Shown: positions 1-44,532, counted from the first letter of the stretch. The stretch: DNA of 61,848 nucleotides from Nitrospirota bacterium (GCA_040753955.1 JBFMDQ010000005.1:1-61848), one strand, 5' to 3'. The notes: generated by a model from the letters alone, not told the origin. Numbers and translations are program-made.

Positions 1-33
1 TTTTTTCGCTTTCTTTGATAAACTCTTTCTCAT
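1..33 (-). CDS. 5' end of a gene running off the window edge (MRKSLSKKAKK...)
   Basis: ATG at 33-31, open to position 1; AGGAG 10 nt upstream on the minus strand. Confidence 0.35.
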   Translation of the reverse strand, partial: MRKSLSKKAKK

Positions 34-113
34 GGGTATAATTCTCCTTTCTCCCTTTTAGGGATTCTCTTAAACCATTGAGAATTATACCCCAAATCAT
101 ATTTGCATAATCC

Positions 114-641
114 ATGTTACACTATCCGCTTGAGAAGGAGAGGAAGATCGAAGTAGCTGAAGGTAATCTGAAAGCTGTACTTATTGGCACCGTAACTTGT
201 GCTGATCTTTCCGCAGCTTTTGCTATCGTCCGGGAGCACGGTTTGGCCGTCTTCGGCACCACAACGGGTAAGCTGCTGCGAGAGCTGGCGCGGCTAGCCC
301 CGGAATACCCGGTACCCATCCGAACCAAATTTTTAGTTCGCTTTTACTTCTGCGCTCCTACATGCGCGCTGCCGCACGTGGCAGTCGCCGCAGGATGGCT
401 AGCTGGCTTTTGGACAGAGGTCCCGGAAGAGGCGAGCCTGGCAGTTGTAAAAGAGTCCTTCCAGAAAGTCTTCGGTCTTCCTTGGGAGAAGGTGGTGGTT
501 GGCAAGGAGCGTGAGAGGCTTTTTCGCTTCTGGGAGGGCTACGTGGCCGTCGCGGCGCTTAAGTCCCACTCGGAGGTAACCGTAGCCCGGATCAGGGAGG
601 AAAACCCAGAGGTGCTGGTGCTGGAACTGCTGCTAGGCTGA
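114..641 (+). CDS. Hypothetical protein, GC-rich, probably foreign
   Basis: 175-aa ORF; visibly more GC-rich than the flanking genes; no recognisable domain. Confidence 0.5.
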   Translation: MLHYPLEKERKIEVAEGNLKAVLIGTVTCADLSAAFAIVREHGLAVFGTTTGKLLRELARLAPEYPVPIRTKFLVRFYFCAPTCALPHVAVAAGWLAGFWTEVPEEASLAVVKESFQKVFGLPWEKVVVGKERERLFRFWEGYVAVAALKSHSEVTVARIREENPEVLVLELLLG

Positions 642-642
642 A

Positions 643-744
643 AAAATAAGCGATGTTATTGATGATAGATTGGAGGAACAGAGGGTCAAACCTTCAAAAA
701 TCATTTTTGAAGAGATGCCCGCAACAGCAGATAACAGAGTTTGA
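643..744 (+). pseudogene. Startless 3' gene remnant (KISDVIDDRLEEQRVKPSKIIFEEMPATADNRV*) ending inside the palindromic repeat
   Basis: Open frame 643-744 with no start codon (TAG at 634-636 in the same frame); stop overlaps repeat copy 1. Confidence 0.35.
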
Positions 745-775
745 GGCCAACTTCAAAGGCTACGCCCTTCTCAAG
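718..775. repeat. attC-like palindromic repeat family, copy 1 (5' part)
   Basis: 720-772 aligns with 44357-44412; CCCGCAAC..CAGATAACA also at 1271-1290; internal TTGAG/CTCAA and AAGG/CCTT stems. Confidence 0.7.
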
Positions 776-850
776 TTTTTTATTGGTAAACAAAATTAGC
801 CTTTATTTAGGTAAAATAGGTCAAAAGATTAAAAAAATACGGAGGAGTTT

Positions 851-1045
851 ATGAAATACAAAGTAAATCTTAAAAAAACTGATGAAGGTTATGCCGTGTG
901 GGTTCCTGGTCTGCCGGGGTGTTGGTCACAGGGACAAACAGAGGAGGAAGCTTTAGAGAATATTAAAGATGCCATACAAGCATATCTTGAAACTGTTGAG
1001 GATTTAAGCAAAAACAAGGAGTCTCGTTATGTAGAAGTAGGATAA
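851..1045 (+). CDS. hicB: Type II TA antitoxin, HicB family (short, no DNA-binding domain)
   Basis: Y.VWVPGLPGCWSQGQTEEEALENIKDAI signature; GGAGGAG RBS at 841-847; adjacent to hicA. Confidence 0.9.
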   Translation: MKYKVNLKKTDEGYAVWVPGLPGCWSQGQTEEEALENIKDAIQAYLETVEDLSKNKESRYVEVG

Positions 1046-1048
1046 ATT

Positions 1049-1261
1049 ATGCCTAAGTTACCAGGTATAAACCACCAACGAGCTGTTAAAGCTTTTGAAA
1101 AGGCAGGTTTTTGGATTGCAAGAGAGGGGAAACATGTAACAATGACAAATGGAGAGCAAATTATTACTATCCCATGGGCAAATCCAGTTGACGCCTTTAC
1201 GATGGCAGGTATTGTAAAAGATGCAGGTCTCACCATTGAGGAATTCAAGAAACTCTTATAA
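1049..1261 (+). CDS. hicA: Type II TA toxin, HicA family
   Basis: 70 aa; AFEKAGF...REGKH motif with conserved His; ends AGLTIEEFKKLL. Confidence 0.9.
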   Translation: MPKLPGINHQRAVKAFEKAGFWIAREGKHVTMTNGEQIITIPWANPVDAFTMAGIVKDAGLTIEEFKKLL

Positions 1262-1270
1262 GCAACCCTG

Positions 1271-1468
1271 CCCGCAACGGACAGATAACACGTTGCATGT
1301 GTAAAATAAAAAATGCTATGCACTTCACATGCAAGGAAACGATACCCAAAATGACGCTTCGCTTGAACGCCTTTATAGATAGCATTTGTAACATGCATTA
1401 TAAATGTTAGTTATGGTAGACAGGTGCAAGTAATTAAGCAGAGGACGGCGTTCACATTTTGGGTATCG
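1271..1468. repeat. Long multi-palindromic element, repeat family copy 2
   Basis: Inverted pairs TTGCATGTG 1293-1301/1326-1334, AAATGCTAT 1311-1319/1379-1387, CGATACCCAAAATG 1340-1353/1455-1468, TGAACGCC 1363-1370/1447-1454; 1336-1410 recurs at 44421-44492. Confidence 0.85.
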
Positions 1469-1511
1469 GGCTGCCATTGCAGGTAGGAAAGAAGAATTAA
1501 ATCGACCTTTC

Positions 1512-1549: not shown

Positions 1550-1622
1550 GCGGGCGTAACTCAGGTGGTAGAGTGTCAGCTTCCCAAGCTGAAGGTCGCG
1601 GGTTCAAATCCCGTCGCCCGCT
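1550..1622 (+). tRNA. tRNA-Gly (CCC)
   Basis: Acceptor GCGGGCG/CGCCCGC, anticodon arm TCAGC-TTCCCAA-GCTGA, T-loop GGTTCAAATCC; followed by TCA, so CCA is not encoded. Confidence 0.95.
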
Positions 1623-1928: not shown

Positions 1929-2990
1929 ATGCCAAAAATTCCGCCAGATAAATATGAAACATGGGGTAGCTATATCAAGGCACTAATGCCCGGAGTAATT
2001 TATTGTATCATTTTAGGGATTTTATCTTGGTACTTAGAGAAAGTTGCTTATGCACAGTGGGGGAAAAATATTCCTTTAAATTATGTTTTTATTGCCATTA
2101 TTCTTGGAATTGTAACGAGAAACCTCTTCAAGATAGGTGAAACATTTATAGAGGGAATCAATTTTAGTTCCAAAGTCTTTCTATATATTGGCGTTGTTTT
2201 AATAGGCGCTAAGCTGAATATTGCTCAAATCTTGAAAGTAGGAAGCGGTGCTCTTCTAATGGTCTCCTTTTCTATAACACTAATGGTTCTTTTATCTGGC
2301 TGGATCTCCAATAGATATCAATTGGGACATCGGGTAGGCCATTTGGTTGGGACGGGAATCGGAATCTGCGGTGTCTCAGCAGTTATTGCAACAGCTCCTG
2401 CCATCAAGGCAACCGAAAAAGAGATAATTATAGCAATTGGCGCATCACTTCTAACAGATGTTATGTGTCTTTTTGCCATTCCTCTGATTGGCCATTACTT
2501 TGGATGGAATGACACCTTTGTAGGCTACTTATCTGGTGTTACACCCTCGAATACAGCCCAGTGTATTGCAACAGGTTTTGCGTACAGTGAGGTTTCTGGA
2601 TATGTCGCAACAATCACCAAATCCGCCAGAAATGCTCTCATGCCAGCTCTTATCCTGGCACTCATTTATTATTACACCAAAAAGGGGTTACCTGTTGGAG
2701 AGAGGGTAAGAATCGGCATACTCTGGTCTAAATTCCCTAAATTTGTATTAGGACTGCTAGTGTTATCCGGCCTTGCAAGTTTCGGTTTGTTTACTAAGGA
2801 AATGGTTAAAACAACCACTCACATGTATCAGTGGTTGTTTTCATTTTGTTTTGTTTCAATCGGAGCTGCGGTTGACTTGAAACAATTCAAAGGGAGAGAC
2901 ATTGCCCCAATTGTTGCCGGTTTTATATTAACTTTTATTCTATTTGGATATGCATTTTTGTTTGCTGGCTATGTTCTTGGGGCAAAATAA
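1929..2990 (+). CDS. YeiH/UPF0324 putative sulfate exporter family transporter
   Basis: Multi-TM; G..IGICGVSAVIATAPAIKA motif; AAGGAG RBS. Confidence 0.85.
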   Translation: MPKIPPDKYETWGSYIKALMPGVIYCIILGILSWYLEKVAYAQWGKNIPLNYVFIAIILGIVTRNLFKIGETFIEGINFSSKVFLYIGVVLIGAKLNIAQILKVGSGALLMVSFSITLMVLLSGWISNRYQLGHRVGHLVGTGIGICGVSAVIATAPAIKATEKEIIIAIGASLLTDVMCLFAIPLIGHYFGWNDTFVGYLSGVTPSNTAQCIATGFAYSEVSGYVATITKSARNALMPALILALIYYYTKKGLPVGERVRIGILWSKFPKFVLGLLVLSGLASFGLFTKEMVKTTTHMYQWLFSFCFVSIGAAVDLKQFKGRDIAPIVAGFILTFILFGYAFLFAGYVLGAK

Positions 2991-3053
2991 TAAGTAGAAA
3001 AACTCTGTGAATTCCACTTATTTTTTTCTGTTCATATCGGTAAATATATTTCC

Positions 3054-3620
3054 TTACCGGCGCATCAGTTTCCATACATAGTAAATCCTCTGAGCAACAG
3101 TAACGTGGGTAAGGATGAGCATTATCCATAATACAGGTACGAGCCATCCTGTTATTGTGGCGAATACTAAGAGGATAATCCTCTCGGGTCTCTCCATGAT
3201 TCCTATATGGCAAGATTCACCGAGGCCCTCTGCCCTTGCCCTTGCATAACTGATCAAGAATGCGCCTATCAAAGTCCCAAGGCTAAGAAATGCACCAGTG
3301 TGGTTTCCCTTTTCTGCAAGGTACCATGCGATTGCAATGAAGAGAAATGCATCAGAATATCTATCCAGTACAGAATCTAAGAATGCACCGAATCTCGTGG
3401 TCTTACTGTTGATTCTTGCCACGATGCCATCAAACATATCAAATAGACCACCAATGAGAATAAGAAAGCCACCGAGTTTTAAGTTATGAAGTATGACTAA
3501 GGTTGCAACACATGTCACAACAAAACCTGTCACTGTAAATATATTCGGATTTAATTGGATTCTTTTTACGATTGGGCTGAGAGGTCTGTCAAGAAAATGA
3601 CCGAATTTGGCAATTAACAC
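3054..3620 (-). CDS. CDP-alcohol phosphatidyltransferase, probable phosphatidylinositol-phosphate synthase type
   Basis: DMFDGIVAR...GAFLDSVLDRYSD signature; C-terminal MERPER; directly downstream of ino1. Confidence 0.85.
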   Translation of the reverse strand: MLIAKFGHFLDRPLSPIVKRIQLNPNIFTVTGFVVTCVATLVILHNLKLGGFLILIGGLFDMFDGIVARINSKTTRFGAFLDSVLDRYSDAFLFIAIAWYLAEKGNHTGAFLSLGTLIGAFLISYARARAEGLGESCHIGIMERPERIILLVFATITGWLVPVLWIMLILTHVTVAQRIYYVWKLMRR

Positions 3621-3623
3621 CTT

Positions 3624-4727
3624 CTACTTTTCCCTTTTCCCAGTAATAAATTCTTCTACCATGTCCCGTGCCTTTTCATCTGAGAACTGTACCAAGGGAT
3701 GTTTCATGAAATATGCGGAAGGAGATATGAGCACCCCCCCTACCCTTCTGTTCCGAGCAATCCTGCAGCATCTTATAGCATCTATAACAACCCCTGCACT
3801 GTTTGGAGAGTCTTCGACAGAAAGTCTGAGTTCAAGACTTACGGGTATGTTTCCAAAAATTCTTCCCTCTATCCTGAGAAAACATATCTTGTTGTCCATA
3901 AGCCAGGGGACATAGTCAGAAGGGCCTATGTGGATATTTTCATTTTTTAATGGACTCTGGAGTTGAGACTGAACGGCCTCTGTCTTTGATATCTTCTTAG
4001 ATTTTAATCTGTAGTGATTTAGCATATTCAAAAAATCGGTATTTCCACCTATATTTAACTGATATGTACTATCTATCTTTACGCCCCTGTCTTCAAAGAG
4101 CTTCGTCAGTGTTCGGTGAATGATCGTGGCTCCTATCTGGCTTTTAATATCGTCTCCTATAATCGGAATATTTTTCTCTTCAAAGCGCCTTGCCCAGGAT
4201 TTGTCAGATGCAATGAAGACAGGAATACAATTAATTAAACTAACACCGGTTTTCAGGCATGCCTCGGCATAAATGGCTGTTGCCTTTTCAGATCCTACAG
4301 GCAGATAGTTCAATAGTATATCGGTATCGCTTTCCCTCAAAACCTTCGCAACATCACAGGGCTTCTTTTCGGCAATAATAAATCTTCTTTCTTTTTGATA
4401 ATCTTCCATATGAGGAGATACGCCATCTAACACCTCACCCATTTCGACTGTGGCAGGATAATCTGGTAGTTTTTCATTGAATACCTTTGTACAGTTAGGT
4501 CTGGCAAAAATAGCTTCCCTTAGAGGTCTGCCTACTTTTCTCTTGTCTATATCAAAGGCTGCCACAATCTGGATATCACTTGGTCTGTACCCTCCGAGGT
4601 CATAATGCATCAGGCCGAGGGCCCTATCCGGATGGCTCTCACCTAAGGCCTTGTAATATTCAATGCCCTGGATCAGTGAGCTGGCGCAATTCCCGACCCC
4701 AGCAATCGCAATCCTTATCTCATGCAT
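3624..4727 (-). CDS. ino1: myo-inositol-1-phosphate synthase
   Basis: [33 protein letters not shown] and VEDSPNSAG motifs. Confidence 0.95.
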
Positions 4728-4731
4728 TCTC

Positions 4732-5148
4732 TTATTTCACCCTTTTCTGAGTCCTTTTGTATAAAAGCAGTATAAGGTCTTCGAGCTTTATACTGAATTC
4801 CGTTAAAAGGCTGTCTAAAGATCCCTCACAATAAAGCAGAAATCTTTTCCATATCCTCTGTATGGTGTCCTTATCCAGATCAGATGCAATTGCGACTTCC
4901 CTGTAGCTCATTCCCTTGAGAAGGTGACGGATGACTTCCTTTATCTTGGACTCTTTTGTATGTAGGCCGAAGAAGAATGTGCTGCGTCGCTCAGAAAATT
5001 TAAAATTACAGGTCTTGCATTTAAGAAGTTTCCTGCGCTCTCTTCCGTACCTGTCATAAATGACGATATTTCCAAGTCCCCTTTTTCCATGGTCACCGCA
5101 TGCCTCATTGGGACAAAAAAAATCTTCTAACTTAAGAGGAATTTCCAT
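4732..5148 (-). CDS. InsA-like Zn-ribbon plus HTH protein without a transposase domain
   Basis: FCPNEAC...[11 protein letters not shown], then [25 protein letters not shown]; ATG at 5148 preferred over the track's TTG at 5166. Confidence 0.65.
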
Positions 5149-20027: not shown

Positions 20028-21167
20028 ATGGATATCAATGAGCTTTTGAAGAAGGCGCACTCATTAGATGCCTCAGACCTTCATATAAAGGTTGGATCTC
20101 CGCCGATACTTAGAATCTATGGAGAAATCACCCCCCTTACGTCGGAGGAAAGGGTAAGCCCTGAAGATGCATTGAGGATAGCCTTCTCTGTTATGACACC
20201 TGAACAGGGAGAGATATTCAAAAAGAGGAATGACATCGACTTTGCCTATAGTGTCTCCGGGCTAGGAAGGTTCAGATGTAACGTCTTCATGCAGAGGGGG
20301 ACGATAGGGATTGTTTTCAGGCTCATCCCGGTGAGGATCCCCACATTCGAGGAATTGCACCTCCCTGATGTTATTAAGAGGATTTCGATGGAAGAAAGGG
20401 GCTTGATCCTTGTTACAGGGACAACCGGTAGTGGAAAAACCACAACCTTAGCTGCAATGATAGACCTGATAAATACAAATAAAACAGAACACATCGTAAC
20501 CATTGAAGACCCGATAGAATATATACACAGTGATAAAAGAAGTGTAGTCAACCAGAGGGAGATAGGAAGCGATACTGAATCCTTCAGCAAGGCATTGAGA
20601 CAGGCCCTTAGACAGGACCCTGATGTAATACTCGTTGGGGAGATGCGTGATTTCGAAACCATCCAGACAGCATTGGTAGCGGCTGAGACAGGTCATCTTG
20701 TTTTGAGCACCCTGCATACAATAGATGCTACCGAGACAATCAATAGAATTATCTCTGTATTCCCCCCTTATCAGCATAAACAGGTGAGGATACAACTTGC
20801 ATCGGTGCTAAAGGGTATTATATCTATGAGGCTCATGCCGAAGTCAGACGGCAAAGGCAGGGTTCCTGCGGTTGAGGTTCTTGTAGCTACGACGACTGTA
20901 AAAGATTGCATCCTCGATCCAGATAAAACAAAATTAATCCATGATGTAATTACACAAGGGGCGATACATTATGGCATGCAGACCTTTGACCAGTCTCTCC
21001 TTGGCCTTTTTAAGTCAGGGCTCATAACCTTTGAAGAGGCACTTAGATGGGCCACAAATCCTGACGATTTTGCCCTCAAGGTAAAAGGCATCCAGTCCAC
21101 AAGCGACCTTGCATTTGAAGAACTTTCTGAGAAGGACAAGATGAAGATTGATAGGTTTGCACGATAA
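20028..21167 (+). CDS. pilT: PilT/PilU-family type IV pilus ATPase
   Basis: GTTGSGKTT, TIEDPIE, ALRQDPDVILVGEMRD and TGHLVLSTLHT motifs. Confidence 0.88.
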   Translation: MDINELLKKAHSLDASDLHIKVGSPPILRIYGEITPLTSEERVSPEDALRIAFSVMTPEQGEIFKKRNDIDFAYSVSGLGRFRCNVFMQRGTIGIVFRLIPVRIPTFEELHLPDVIKRISMEERGLILVTGTTGSGKTTTLAAMIDLINTNKTEHIVTIEDPIEYIHSDKRSVVNQREIGSDTESFSKALRQALRQDPDVILVGEMRDFETIQTALVAAETGHLVLSTLHTIDATETINRIISVFPPYQHKQVRIQLASVLKGIISMRLMPKSDGKGRVPAVEVLVATTTVKDCILDPDKTKLIHDVITQGAIHYGMQTFDQSLLGLFKSGLITFEEALRWATNPDDFALKVKGIQSTSDLAFEELSEKDKMKIDRFAR

Positions 21168-21621
21168 GGCAAGGCAATATGCCTTGAAGCTCCTGGGCTA
21201 CAGAGGAAGAAGCAGAAAGGAACTGGAAGAAAGGCTTACAAAAAAGGGGTTCTCTGAAACTGTGGTCTCCTCTACAATAAACTATCTCAGGGATGTAGGG
21301 CTTATTGACGACAGGGCATTAGCTGAGGCGTTGAAAAGAGAGGCAATAACAACAAAACTTTTCAGTCAATATGGTGCAAGGAAATTCATGCTTACCAGGG
21401 GCATACCGAGGGAGATTGTTGATTCGATGTTCATCCCTGATGAAAAAGAAGATATTGAGAATGCTAAGAGGCTTGTAGACAAAAAACTGAGGATTATGAA
21501 GAACTATCCAGCAGAAAAGATAAAGAGAAGACTATATAATCTTCTTCTCAGGAAGGGTTACTCCTTTGAGACGATAGAGGCTGTATTAAAGGGCAAAAAA
21601 TTTAAGGAGGATTTAAGATGA
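21148..21621 (+). CDS. recX: Regulatory protein RecX
   Basis: ALKLL..R.RS.KEL.ERL; LLRKGYS; downstream of recA. Confidence 0.88.
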   Translation: MIGLHDKARQYALKLLGYRGRSRKELEERLTKKGFSETVVSSTINYLRDVGLIDDRALAEALKREAITTKLFSQYGARKFMLTRGIPREIVDSMFIPDEKEDIENAKRLVDKKLRIMKNYPAEKIKRRLYNLLLRKGYSFETIEAVLKGKKFKEDLR

Positions 21622-28467: not shown

Positions 28468-29367
28468 CTATGATACATCATCATGTTGATCTTTTGCAAA
28501 AGGATGTGCCCTGTCATAGATGTCTATTAAATGTGTAATATCCAGATGAGTGTATTTCTGGGTCGTGGAGAGGGATGAATGACCCAGAAGCTCTTGTATT
28601 ACCCTGAGGTCTGCACCGCTCTGAAGTAGATGGGTTGCAAATGTATGTCTCAGTGTGTGAGGTCCTATCTGTCCGTTGATACCTATCATCCTTGCATATT
28701 TAACCACTACACGTCTTGCTCCCCTTTCTGTCAACCTTGTCCCTGTTCTATTAAGAAACAAAGCCCTATTCTTACTTTTGAGTGGTATCCTCTCCACCAT
28801 ATATGATTTAATGGCATCAATCGCCTTTGAACCAACCGGCACTATCCTCTCTTTTCTACCCTTCCCCTTTACCTTTAACAACCCCTCCCTTGTGTTAATG
28901 TCATCTACATTGAGCCCTGAAAGTTCGCTTACCCTCAGACCACTTGAATATAGAAGTTCAAGGATGGCCCTGTCTCTTGCAGGTATAAACCCTGTCTCTT
29001 TAGATCTTTCAACAAGAGAAAAGACATCATCAACAGAAAGAAATCTGGGAAGGAGCTTTGGAACCTTCGGGTTTGAAACAAGTTTTGCCGGATTTGATTT
29101 TATGTAGCCCTCCCTGTGAAGGAATTTGAAAAAAGATCTTAAACTGCCAAGTCTTCTGCTTACAGTAGTCTTATTCAACCCTTGCCTAATCTGTCCTGCA
29201 ATGAAACCGCGCACATCGATCATATCTATAGTTTCTGGCTTTGTTTTTATGTATTCAAAAAACTTTTCAAGATCCTTCCTATAAGCCCTTAGGGTATGAG
29301 GTGATGCAGCCTTTTCGATCTCAAGATATCTAAGGAACTTATCAATATGGTCTTTCATATAAGTCAA
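28468..29367 (-). CDS. xerC: Tyrosine recombinase XerC
   Basis: [23 protein letters not shown] and LGH...TTQKY motifs; xerC-hslVU synteny. Confidence 0.93.
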
Positions 29368-44268: not shown

Positions 44269-44356
44269 ATTGCTTTATTTCTTATGGTAAAAGAAGAAGC
44301 CAAAAAGGGTCAGACTTGTTTATTGACTTTCAGGGAGTAGAAGAAATCACCGTTAT

Positions 44357-44492
44357 CGCAACAGCCGATAGCAGAGTGCTTGAGGTTAATACACAAAGGC
44401 GACGCCCTTCTCGATCACTCGAAACGATACCCAAAATGACGCTTCGCTTGAACGCCTTTATAGGCATTTGTAACATGCATTATGAATGTTAG
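44357..44492. repeat. attC-like repeat family copy 3 (mosaic of copies 1 and 2)
   Basis: 44357-44412 matches 720-772; 44421-44492 matches 1336-1410 apart from a 3-bp indel and one substitution. Confidence 0.85.
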
Positions 44493-44532
44493 TGCTTTAA
44501 TGCTTTAATAAAATGGTCATTGCGAGGACTAA

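Follow-up and report, generated by a model that had tools for sequence, protein, structure and literature searches.

We analyzed a 61,848-nucleotide window from a Nitrospirota bacterium (GCA_040753955.1, JBFMDQ010000005.1:1-61848). The window is contig C5 of a 1.69-Mb assembly (genome G000), and it was compared with its relatives, 57 genomes of the same taxonomic family. Close to the start of the window, a hicBA toxin-antitoxin (TA) gene pair lies between two copies of a repeated motif. hicBA is probably a promoter-bearing TA integron gene cassette, with the repeat as the open reading frame (ORF)-proximal end of a lineage-specific attC family. Positions ~114 to 1483 likely represent the chromosome-proximal end of a small decayed cassette cluster upstream of tRNA-Gly(CCC), resembling an attC-site cluster that has no integron integrase (CALIN). 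The layout of the attC family, its placement at ORF ends and in arrays, and two intact integron integrase genes (intI) elsewhere in the genome support the integron-cassette reading.

The hicBA pair and the repeated motif

The gene pair, its flanking sites, and the downstream module were located as follows.

716..775, + strand: attC copy 1, truncated at its 3' end; outer box TGCCCGCAA (716-724), R'' AGATAAC (729-735), interior as far as CCCTTCTCAAG
776..850, + strand: hicBA leader with its presumed own promoter (conserved GGTAAAATA) and a ribosome-binding site (RBS); G004, G035, and G017 share homology at their hicBA loci from this region on
851..1045, + strand: hicB antitoxin gene, 64 amino acids (aa) (PF15919, E 2.9e-11, 44 bits; cut-off 27)
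1049..1261, + strand: hicA toxin gene, 70 aa (PF07927, E 2.6e-6, 27.9 bits; cut-off 27)
1269..1340, + strand: attC copy 2 as far as the crossover point; outer box 1269-1277, R'' AGATAAC 1283-1289, spacer GGAAAC 1335-1340
1341..1467, + strand: module Y, an inverted-repeat element of 127 nt; arms 1341-1353/1455-1467 and 1364-1371/1447-1454
1406..1412, + strand: GTTAGTT, inside the variable interior of module Y
1468..1483, + strand: deletion scar GGGCTG and what remains of the outer box on the downstream side, ATTGCAGG (1476-1483), from alignment to C14, G021, and G001

hicB and hicA are separated by 3 nt. As adjacent small genes with HicB-like and HicA domains, they are predicted to form a type II HicAB system. 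HicA homologs with 79-94% identity were found in four relatives, and an exact-protein look-up of HicA returned zero further contigs. The leader presumably contains the promoter of the pair; a consensus promoter scan made no call for it there.

The motif TGCCCGCAAC-N2-3-CAGATAAC occurs at 716-735 and 1269-1289 and brackets both genes. TGCCCGCAAC is repeated exactly at 716-725 and 1269-1278, and CAGATAACA at 728-736 and 1282-1290; the internal spacer shows a one-base difference between the copies. The 1.69-Mb genome contains five instances of GCCYGCAMC-N2-5-GMTAAC and none of the reversed pattern. The genomic copies are paired 550-635 bp apart, on C5, C14, and C53, each pair enclosing a TA-like unit of two genes and lying close to a contig end. 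An origin of the motif as a coding remnant was rejected because its internal spacer varies from 2 to 5 nt.

The original prediction placed hicBA between two related long palindromes, each directly after an ORF. The exact shared motif is present on both sides, but copy 1 is truncated and forms no long palindrome; the fold of 700-800 is no better than that of shuffled sequence (z -0.2). The hicA stop codon (1259-1261) is 7 nt upstream of copy 2. The upstream ORF ends at 639-641, 75 nt before copy 1, and therefore the motif does not follow that ORF at once.

The attC family in related genomes

Full members of the family begin with the outer box TGCCYGCAA, 3-4 nt, R'' (RGMTAAC), and a 12-bp L stem with its loop. 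The 3' half contains the return stem, the spacer GGAAAC, and R' (GTTRRRY), often followed after 4 nt by a complementary ATTGCRGGCA or TTGCRGGCA box. R'' is AGATAAC or GGCTAAC, and R' is GTTATCT, GTTAGCG, GTTAGGC, or GTTAGTT. Full members measure ~75-80 nt from R'' to R', inside the 57-141 bp range of attC sites. Examples of the full layout are AGATAAC...GGAAAC GTTATCT TCTC ATTGCAGGGCA and GGCTAAC...GTTAGCG.

As expected of attC cores, the inner TAAC/GTTA pairs are retained in 12-14 of the 15 aligned copies. In these copies, the L stem is 95% paired, and 5 of its 12 pairs have compensatory two-sided changes. None of 500 shuffles reached the observed covariation, and controls slid along the alignment collapsed, so the stem has the structural conservation of an attC site. 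The AGATAAC...GTTAGTT ends had been suggested as a possible lineage-specific core. In full copies, however, AGATAAC pairs with GTTATCT; the GTTAGTT at 1406-1412 belongs to the separate module Y, and the homolog of R' is at 1341-1347.

The exact pattern was found in 26 of the 57 genomes (reversed control, 0). A family covariance model built from the 15-copy alignment recovered ~170 members in 30 of the 57. About 31 contigs carry at least two matches to the model, always on the same strand. Arrays of 3-4 sites with a spacing of 0.6-2.6 kb are present, for example, on G035:C15, G035:C37, G029:C14, and G027:C173. For 21 of 37 copies, a frame of 50 or more codons has its stop within the 40 nt before the copy (random positions, 14.8%), and an RBS and ATG often come right after R' and the outer box. 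The array on G035:C37 reads ORF, attC, TA pair, attC, short cassette, hicBA, and a full family attC, the last ending GTTATCT TCTC ATTGCAGGGCA. The assignment of the motif and its hairpin to an integron-type site was therefore supported, with attC layout, a covarying stem, ORF-stop placement, and co-oriented arrays all found in complete relatives. The alternative pattern named with that assignment, copies scattered irrespective of ORF ends and never in arrays, was not what we found.

TA cassettes are dispersed at several chromosomal sites distant from intI. TA cargo, carrying its own promoters, is typical of chromosomal integrons (PMC13108822), as the original prediction had supposed. TA cassettes have landed more than once in the intergenic region 5' of murA. 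There, G000:C11 (37486-38352) contains a DUF4258/DUF2283-like pair with a full family attC, and G026:C170 (L160) contains a hicBA homolog with no attC. An ad hoc attC scanner that looked for AAC...GTT with paired R and L was dropped, as it returned 182 genome hits and 133 in shuffled sequence.

The two attC copies in the window

(a) Copy 1. The family covariance model scored this copy at 28.4 bits (E 9e-4), with a truncated match at 715-804. Its interior (hairpin 1) reaches CCCTTCTCAAG at 765-775, and it lacks the spacer and R'. Full versions of its subtype read on as CTCAAGCACTCGAAAC GTTATGT (G010, L136+2420). Copy 1 does not have CACTCGAAAC GTTATGT, the end that completes its subtype in G010 (L136).

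(b) Copy 2. This copy scored 52.2 bits (E 8e-10), with a match at 1268-1360, and is 91% identical to a copy in G003. In its L stem, TTGCATGTG (1293-1301) pairs with CACATGCAA (1326-1334), with compensatory changes relative to other subtypes. It is intact as far as the crossover G (1341), and module Y begins exactly at that point. Its R' position (1341-1347) reads GATACCC, where relatives carry GTT.... Neither copy in the window has the paired RYYYAAC/GTTRRRY core sites of an attC.

The upstream site is without spacer and R', and the downstream R' is GATACCC; therefore, the hicBA cassette is probably immobilized, with both flanking sites defective. attC sites are recombined as folded single strands by the integron integrase. 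We infer that hicBA would have moved as a cassette through such recombination by IntI, that the cluster would then have come to rest 5' of tRNA-Gly, and that subsequent events may have disabled both sites around hicBA. Loss of excision may have been tolerated or selected, because cells of Vibrio cholerae die when a TA cassette is excised from the chromosomal integron ("cassette loss killing"; PMC13108822).

Integron integrases in the genome and its relatives

No intI was found in the window, and the array there does not adjoin an intI and attI as in a complete integron. The genome encodes two intact integron integrases elsewhere, at C23:18971-19906 (406.7 bits) and C63:3993-4922 (382.8 bits; TIGR02249, NCBIfam curated cut-off 265). 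The system is thus not an orphan, contrary to one suggestion of the original prediction, which had also proposed the search for intI. Both integrases could act in trans on the sites of this genome.

(a) C23. This locus is a complete mini-integron. It contains intI, the attI region, one ParDE-like TA cassette, and an attC, followed by housekeeping genes. At 20200-21405 (joined to the end of C15), the one-cassette integron has the addiction module as its sole cargo and is followed by a HEPN-like gene and ftsH.

(b) C63. This locus contains intI, attI (GTTAGGC), two ORFs, and an attC. C-terminal integron-integrase fragments of ~90 bits each are present at C27 464-676 and C63 3801-3983. They indicate past decay or duplication of an integrase gene. 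A repeat of ~125 nt occurs at C63 1-125 and at about 25 other places in the assembly, many at contig ends and some inside contigs.

IntI-like genes were present in each of the 12 motif-bearing relatives examined, and in 9 of these they scored above the cut-off. The nearest IntI relatives are from groundwater Nitrospirota, Thermodesulfovibrionales, and other metagenome-assembled genomes of anaerobes. In G017, a HicA with 84% identity is followed by the attC type found beside intI on C23 and C63, which ties the gene pair to bona fide integron sites.

The cluster in the window has two family matches within 4 kb and no intI near them, as scored by the family's own covariance model, with one match marginal and truncated. 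CALINs as defined with IntegronFinder have at least two attC sites within 4 kb and no intI nearby (PMC4889954). The cluster would resemble them, in a genome that encodes IntI elsewhere; it differs in that one of its sites is marginal and truncated and both were called by the family's own model. CALINs are common where the genome encodes IntI, with half of them in such genomes, and they arise through rearrangement or insertion at secondary sites (PMC4889954).

Site geometry and evidence against the cassette reading

Several results weigh against hicBA as an integron cassette. The family model had 0 matches in 92 IntI-adjacent loci (718 kb; 12 loci from the same taxonomic family), and a motif regular expression had none in the regions fetched beside 12 intI genes of relatives. 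In the sole case on the same contig (G035), the family member is 12.5 kb from intI amid housekeeping genes. Truncated upstream sites abut the TA promoter in several independent TA loci, and a truncated site 5' of TA operons is not predicted by simple attC x attC insertion. An excised or empty form of the hicBA locus was not found among the assembled contigs of the source sample; a joint skipping hicBA was also absent from the contigs of the source run and three others. The comparison with source-run contigs recovered only unitig branch points already explained by other genomic copies.

The geometry of the site belongs to the same side of the argument. In the family, R'' is followed by 1 unpaired nt and R' is preceded by 5 (GAAAC), so its longer arm is opposite to that of canonical attC sites, which have an unpaired central spacer of ~5-6 nt per arm and extrahelical bases on the R''-L'' arm (PMC5027507). 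The extra unpaired bases are thus on the 3' arm of the coding strand. The IntI-linked sites on C23 and C63, unlike the motif family, have theirs on the canonical side. Two inter-genome blocks of 93-94% identity also stop directly after GATAAC and not at R'. These breakpoints would fit a crossover at the motif AAC with the coding strand recombining, or a deletion between direct repeats of the motif. A crossover at R' on the coding strand is favored and appears considerably more probable, given the order of gene and RBS, where the C11 cluster ends, and the insertion of Y-W at the G| of R'. The motif AAC gains from the spacer asymmetry and the GATAAC breakpoints.

The cassette reading nevertheless accounts better than three rival explanations for the co-orientation, the association with ORF ends, the attC-type cores, and the presence of IntI.

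Folding of the region and a proposed larger attC

The downstream site was predicted to fold as a stem of ~125 nt. Its component pairs exist (TAACA 1286-1290/TGTTA 1405-1409, TGCATGT/ACATGCA, and AAATGCTAT/ATAGCATTT, the last complementary between 1311-1319 and 1378-1386), but the stem is neither the favored nor a conserved fold. The segment 1266-1420 has a z score of -1.67, and the stem appears only in a minimum free energy structure of frequency 0.0001 and is missing from the centroid. The longer segment 1266-1490 is strongly structured (z -5.66; 0 of 200 shuffles as good). It folds three ways, into an outer stem (1266-1283/1472-1488) and two hairpins (1293-1301/1326-1334 and 1341-1353/1455-1467).

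If the ~125-nt stem were a genuine site, hicBA could be a complete, excisable cassette at 656-1406. Its attC would be a hairpin of ~129 nt from R'' at 1283-1289 to R' GTTAGTT at 1406-1412, with the direct repeat ATGTTAKTKATGRTAGA at 653 and 1404 marking both crossover points. We consider this unlikely. The 9-bp and 7-bp complementarities are improbable by chance, and the ~4 nt after R'' and 8 nt before R' match the asymmetric geometry of the family. The direct repeat is 73% identical between 653 and 1404, and the homology of an orphan copy elsewhere in the window stops at GTTAGT. Against these points stands the fold itself, which is not favored. The 3' arm is also part of module Y, which occurs independently of this hairpin type, and in all full relatives R' comes after the local hairpin and GGAAAC, at the equivalent of position 1341. 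On the upstream side, 653-715 belongs to the conserved tail of the upstream ORF in G022. A copy on C11 begins ~10 nt before the GTT.

The orphan copy (44352..44493, + strand) has no TA genes and is between convergent phosphoribosyltransferase and acyl-CoA dehydrogenase genes. It contains a degenerate motif (GTTATCG CAACAGC CGATAGC), hairpin 1, the spacer, and the left half of module Y.

Modules nested at the crossover position

(a) Module Y. It has a 10-nt bulge at 1354-1363, and its left arm, GATACCC, occupies the R' position of copy 2. Its length in relatives ranges from a 38-nt hairpin to the long form of the window. The 38-nt form in G021:C31 is GATACCCAAAATG tcgcttcgctc CATTTTGGGTATC. Exact copies of the Y arm are confined to G000, G001, G013, G021, and a few others. 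A search allowing one mismatch in the arm returned only noise, because the reversed controls were equal. GTTAGTT at 1406-1412 looks from its sequence like a relic L'-spacer-R' half-site within Y. The orphan-copy homology stops at this GTTAGTT, and the C11 half-copy begins ~10 nt before it.

(b) Module W. It is a 150-nt hairpin directly 3' of Y. It has a closing stem of 15-19 bp, with three compensatory changes between versions. In relatives, GTTAG.. and the outer box come after W.

Y-W is found at the R' position of at least six attC types. Its host sites are three motif-family subtypes, two unrelated attC types (G013), and another hairpin module (G001). The copies in C14, G021, and G001 contain GGGCTG, then the 150-nt W, then GTTAG and GCAATTGCGGGC; C14 retains Y-W plus GTTAGGC. 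By alignment, W and the GTT R' are deleted in the window and in C53, where CCATTGCAGG comes directly after GGGCTG. What is left of the outer box (1476-1483) pairs in the fold with the leading box of the motif, within 1266-1283. Y-W is most simply read as a cassette-like insert that has no ORF and sits at the crossover point (G|) of the integron; the core of its own R box would be ATC/GAT (GGGTATC with GATACCC).

(c) Modules V and U. Modules Y, W, V (GATAAGGCGGTC..GACCGCCTTATC), and U (GGGGCGGGTCGGC..GCCGACCCGCCCC) are chained without spacers in G001:C17 (1-670) and G013:C220 (~1340-1900). Their cyclic order is V-U-Y-W or Y-W-V-U, the joints being TATC|G and C|GATA, an arrangement suggestive of a unit that is tandem or circularly permuted.

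IS1111-attC insertion sequences and group IIC-attC introns also nest in attC sites. Y (with W) is like these elements, and like the ORF-less integron cassettes that have been described (PMC6557892), in its fixed spot in many attC types and its lack of an ORF. It differs in its small size (Y, 38-130 nt; W, 150 nt), in encoding neither a transposase nor a reverse transcriptase, in having ends that resemble an R box with an ATC/GAT core, and in being chained with V and U.

It is conceivable, though rather doubtful, that this Nitrospirota lineage carries an elaborated integron site system with outer-box clamps and GAT-core hairpin modules. In such a system, the boxes outside R'' and R' may give every cassette a fixed adaptor at both ends, and ORF-less hairpin "cassettes" of a second, partly orthogonal class may nest at the attC crossover and turn R' into GAT. 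The AAC triplet is conserved only for micro-homology (PMC5027507); therefore, GAT-core modules could be locks against the excision of neighboring cassettes, above all of TA cassettes whose loss is lethal, or define a separate exchange group.

Alternative readings: other recombinases, palindromic repeats, or functional RNA

The motif copies could instead be palindromic repeats like repetitive extragenic palindromes (REPs) or miniature inverted-repeat transposable elements (MITEs), or the att core of a small TA element moved by another recombinase, with only a resemblance to attC. This has a low probability, comparable to that of the larger attC. Family members are never found beside intI, the copies are dispersed intergenically near tRNA-Gly, murA, and leuA-like genes, and the TA units are flanked by 22-nt direct repeats, all of which would suit such an element, as would the break in homology directly after GATAAC. 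Yet each cluster has one orientation, with copies after ORF stops, and the ends are of the RYYYAAC/GTTRRRY type around a covarying stem. C14 continues into sites with GCCTAAC...GTTAGGC ends, and the hicBA of G017 goes with the IntI-linked attC type. REPs, MITEs, and bacterial interspersed mosaic elements are alike in being short structured intergenic repeats that break assemblies. The family differs in its strict co-orientation within clusters, its tie to ORF ends, and its attC-type cores. We did not find the scatter in both orientations regardless of gene ends, with terminal inverted repeats and target duplication, that marks REPs and MITEs. Module Y alone has terminal inverted repeats, yet it is always at the attC crossover position.

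The candidate for another recombinase, similarly unlikely, is a 414-aa tyrosine recombinase beside Y-W in G021. This non-IntI enzyme is directly 5' of Y-W at two loci, which speaks for it. Both loci are in G021, the only genome looked at, one of the genes is a pseudogene, and Y-W occurs in other genomes without this recombinase alongside. Only the N-terminal half of the protein matches the IntI model, and the gene is co-oriented with Y-W. It is found at G021:C17 (L010 1700-2944) and G021:C31 (L025 1-600), with one copy intact and one frameshifted.

A functional RNA at 1266-1490 (225 nt; a 3' untranslated region or terminator of hicBA, a small RNA, or a leader on the tRNA promoter) is very improbable: the strong fold (z -5.66), the covarying Y and W helices with W loops of UUCG, UCCG, or UAAA on the coding strand, and the position directly 5' of the tRNA promoter would suit it, but Rfam gave zero matches at E<=1 for the window region and the Y-W loci, the modules recur in the neighborhood of many unrelated genes, in each case at attC crossover positions, and the covariation is equally expected of folded single-stranded DNA.

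Flanks of the cluster

The remaining features are upstream and downstream of the cassette.

1..126, no strand: high-copy repeat; ends the contig and truncates the 5' end of the upstream ORF
114..641, + strand: 5'-truncated cassette ORF, 175 aa (the "upstream remnant"); 92% protein identity to a frame in G022:C21
642..715, + strand: 3' untranslated tail of the upstream ORF cassette, with a palindrome at 692-712; inside the 93.3%-identity block 127-736
1550..1622, + strand: tRNA-Gly(CCC), chromosomal flank; promoter TTGACT-18-TAAAAT at 1512-1541

The unitig depth in the source metagenome is 2,200-5,000 over 1-126 and ~131-170 over 98-1471. A 38-codon open frame on the minus strand of the repeat runs off the contig. 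The counterpart of the upstream ORF in G022:C21 is a 244-codon frame followed by a full attC of another subtype; therefore, the upstream remnant is a cassette ORF truncated at its 5' end. A Pfam search of its 175-aa product returned zero family matches. Positions 127-736, which contain the upstream ORF, its tail, and the motif, are 93.3% identical to G022:C21. The homology begins at 127, and the identity breaks off directly after GATAACA.

G010 has the same tRNA-Gly and promoter, and the cassette cluster upstream of them is absent. Integration of a tRNA-targeted island was rejected, as a tRNA-derived direct repeat is absent and the structure of the cluster is attC based. The window also contains a Xer-like gene at 28543-29313.

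Comparison with known integrons and significance

The family resembles integron cassettes, including those of the V. cholerae superintegron, in having an ORF or operon followed by an imperfect palindrome with RYYYAAC/GTTRRRY-type ends, the attC anatomy described for integrons (PMC5027507). As in sedentary chromosomal integrons, the arrays are co-oriented, an integrase is encoded in the genome, and the TA cargo carries a presumed promoter of its own. Within the lineage, site sequences are also homogeneous, as in integrons (PMC5027507, PMC13108822). Compared with textbook attC sites, the family has conserved complementary boxes outside both R boxes, a 1-nt/5-nt spacer with the longer arm on the opposite side, and no member beside intI. 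In the window itself, R' is GAT and not GTT, and the upstream site is truncated.

Apart from a few unusual features of its sites, the hicBA locus of this Nitrospirota-like groundwater genome is a decayed and fairly ordinary case. It provides a dissected integron cassette from a small-genome groundwater Nitrospirota lineage, beyond the well-studied Proteobacteria. The analysis further yields an attC family that can be used in searches, with ~170 copies across 30 genomes. Its outer boxes, its reversed spacer asymmetry, and the nested GAT-core modules are real features of the sequences. If they are not functional, the locus would be an ordinary decayed cassette cluster. Should these three features turn out to have a function, they would be relevant to the way in which chromosomal integrons retain or lock cassettes.

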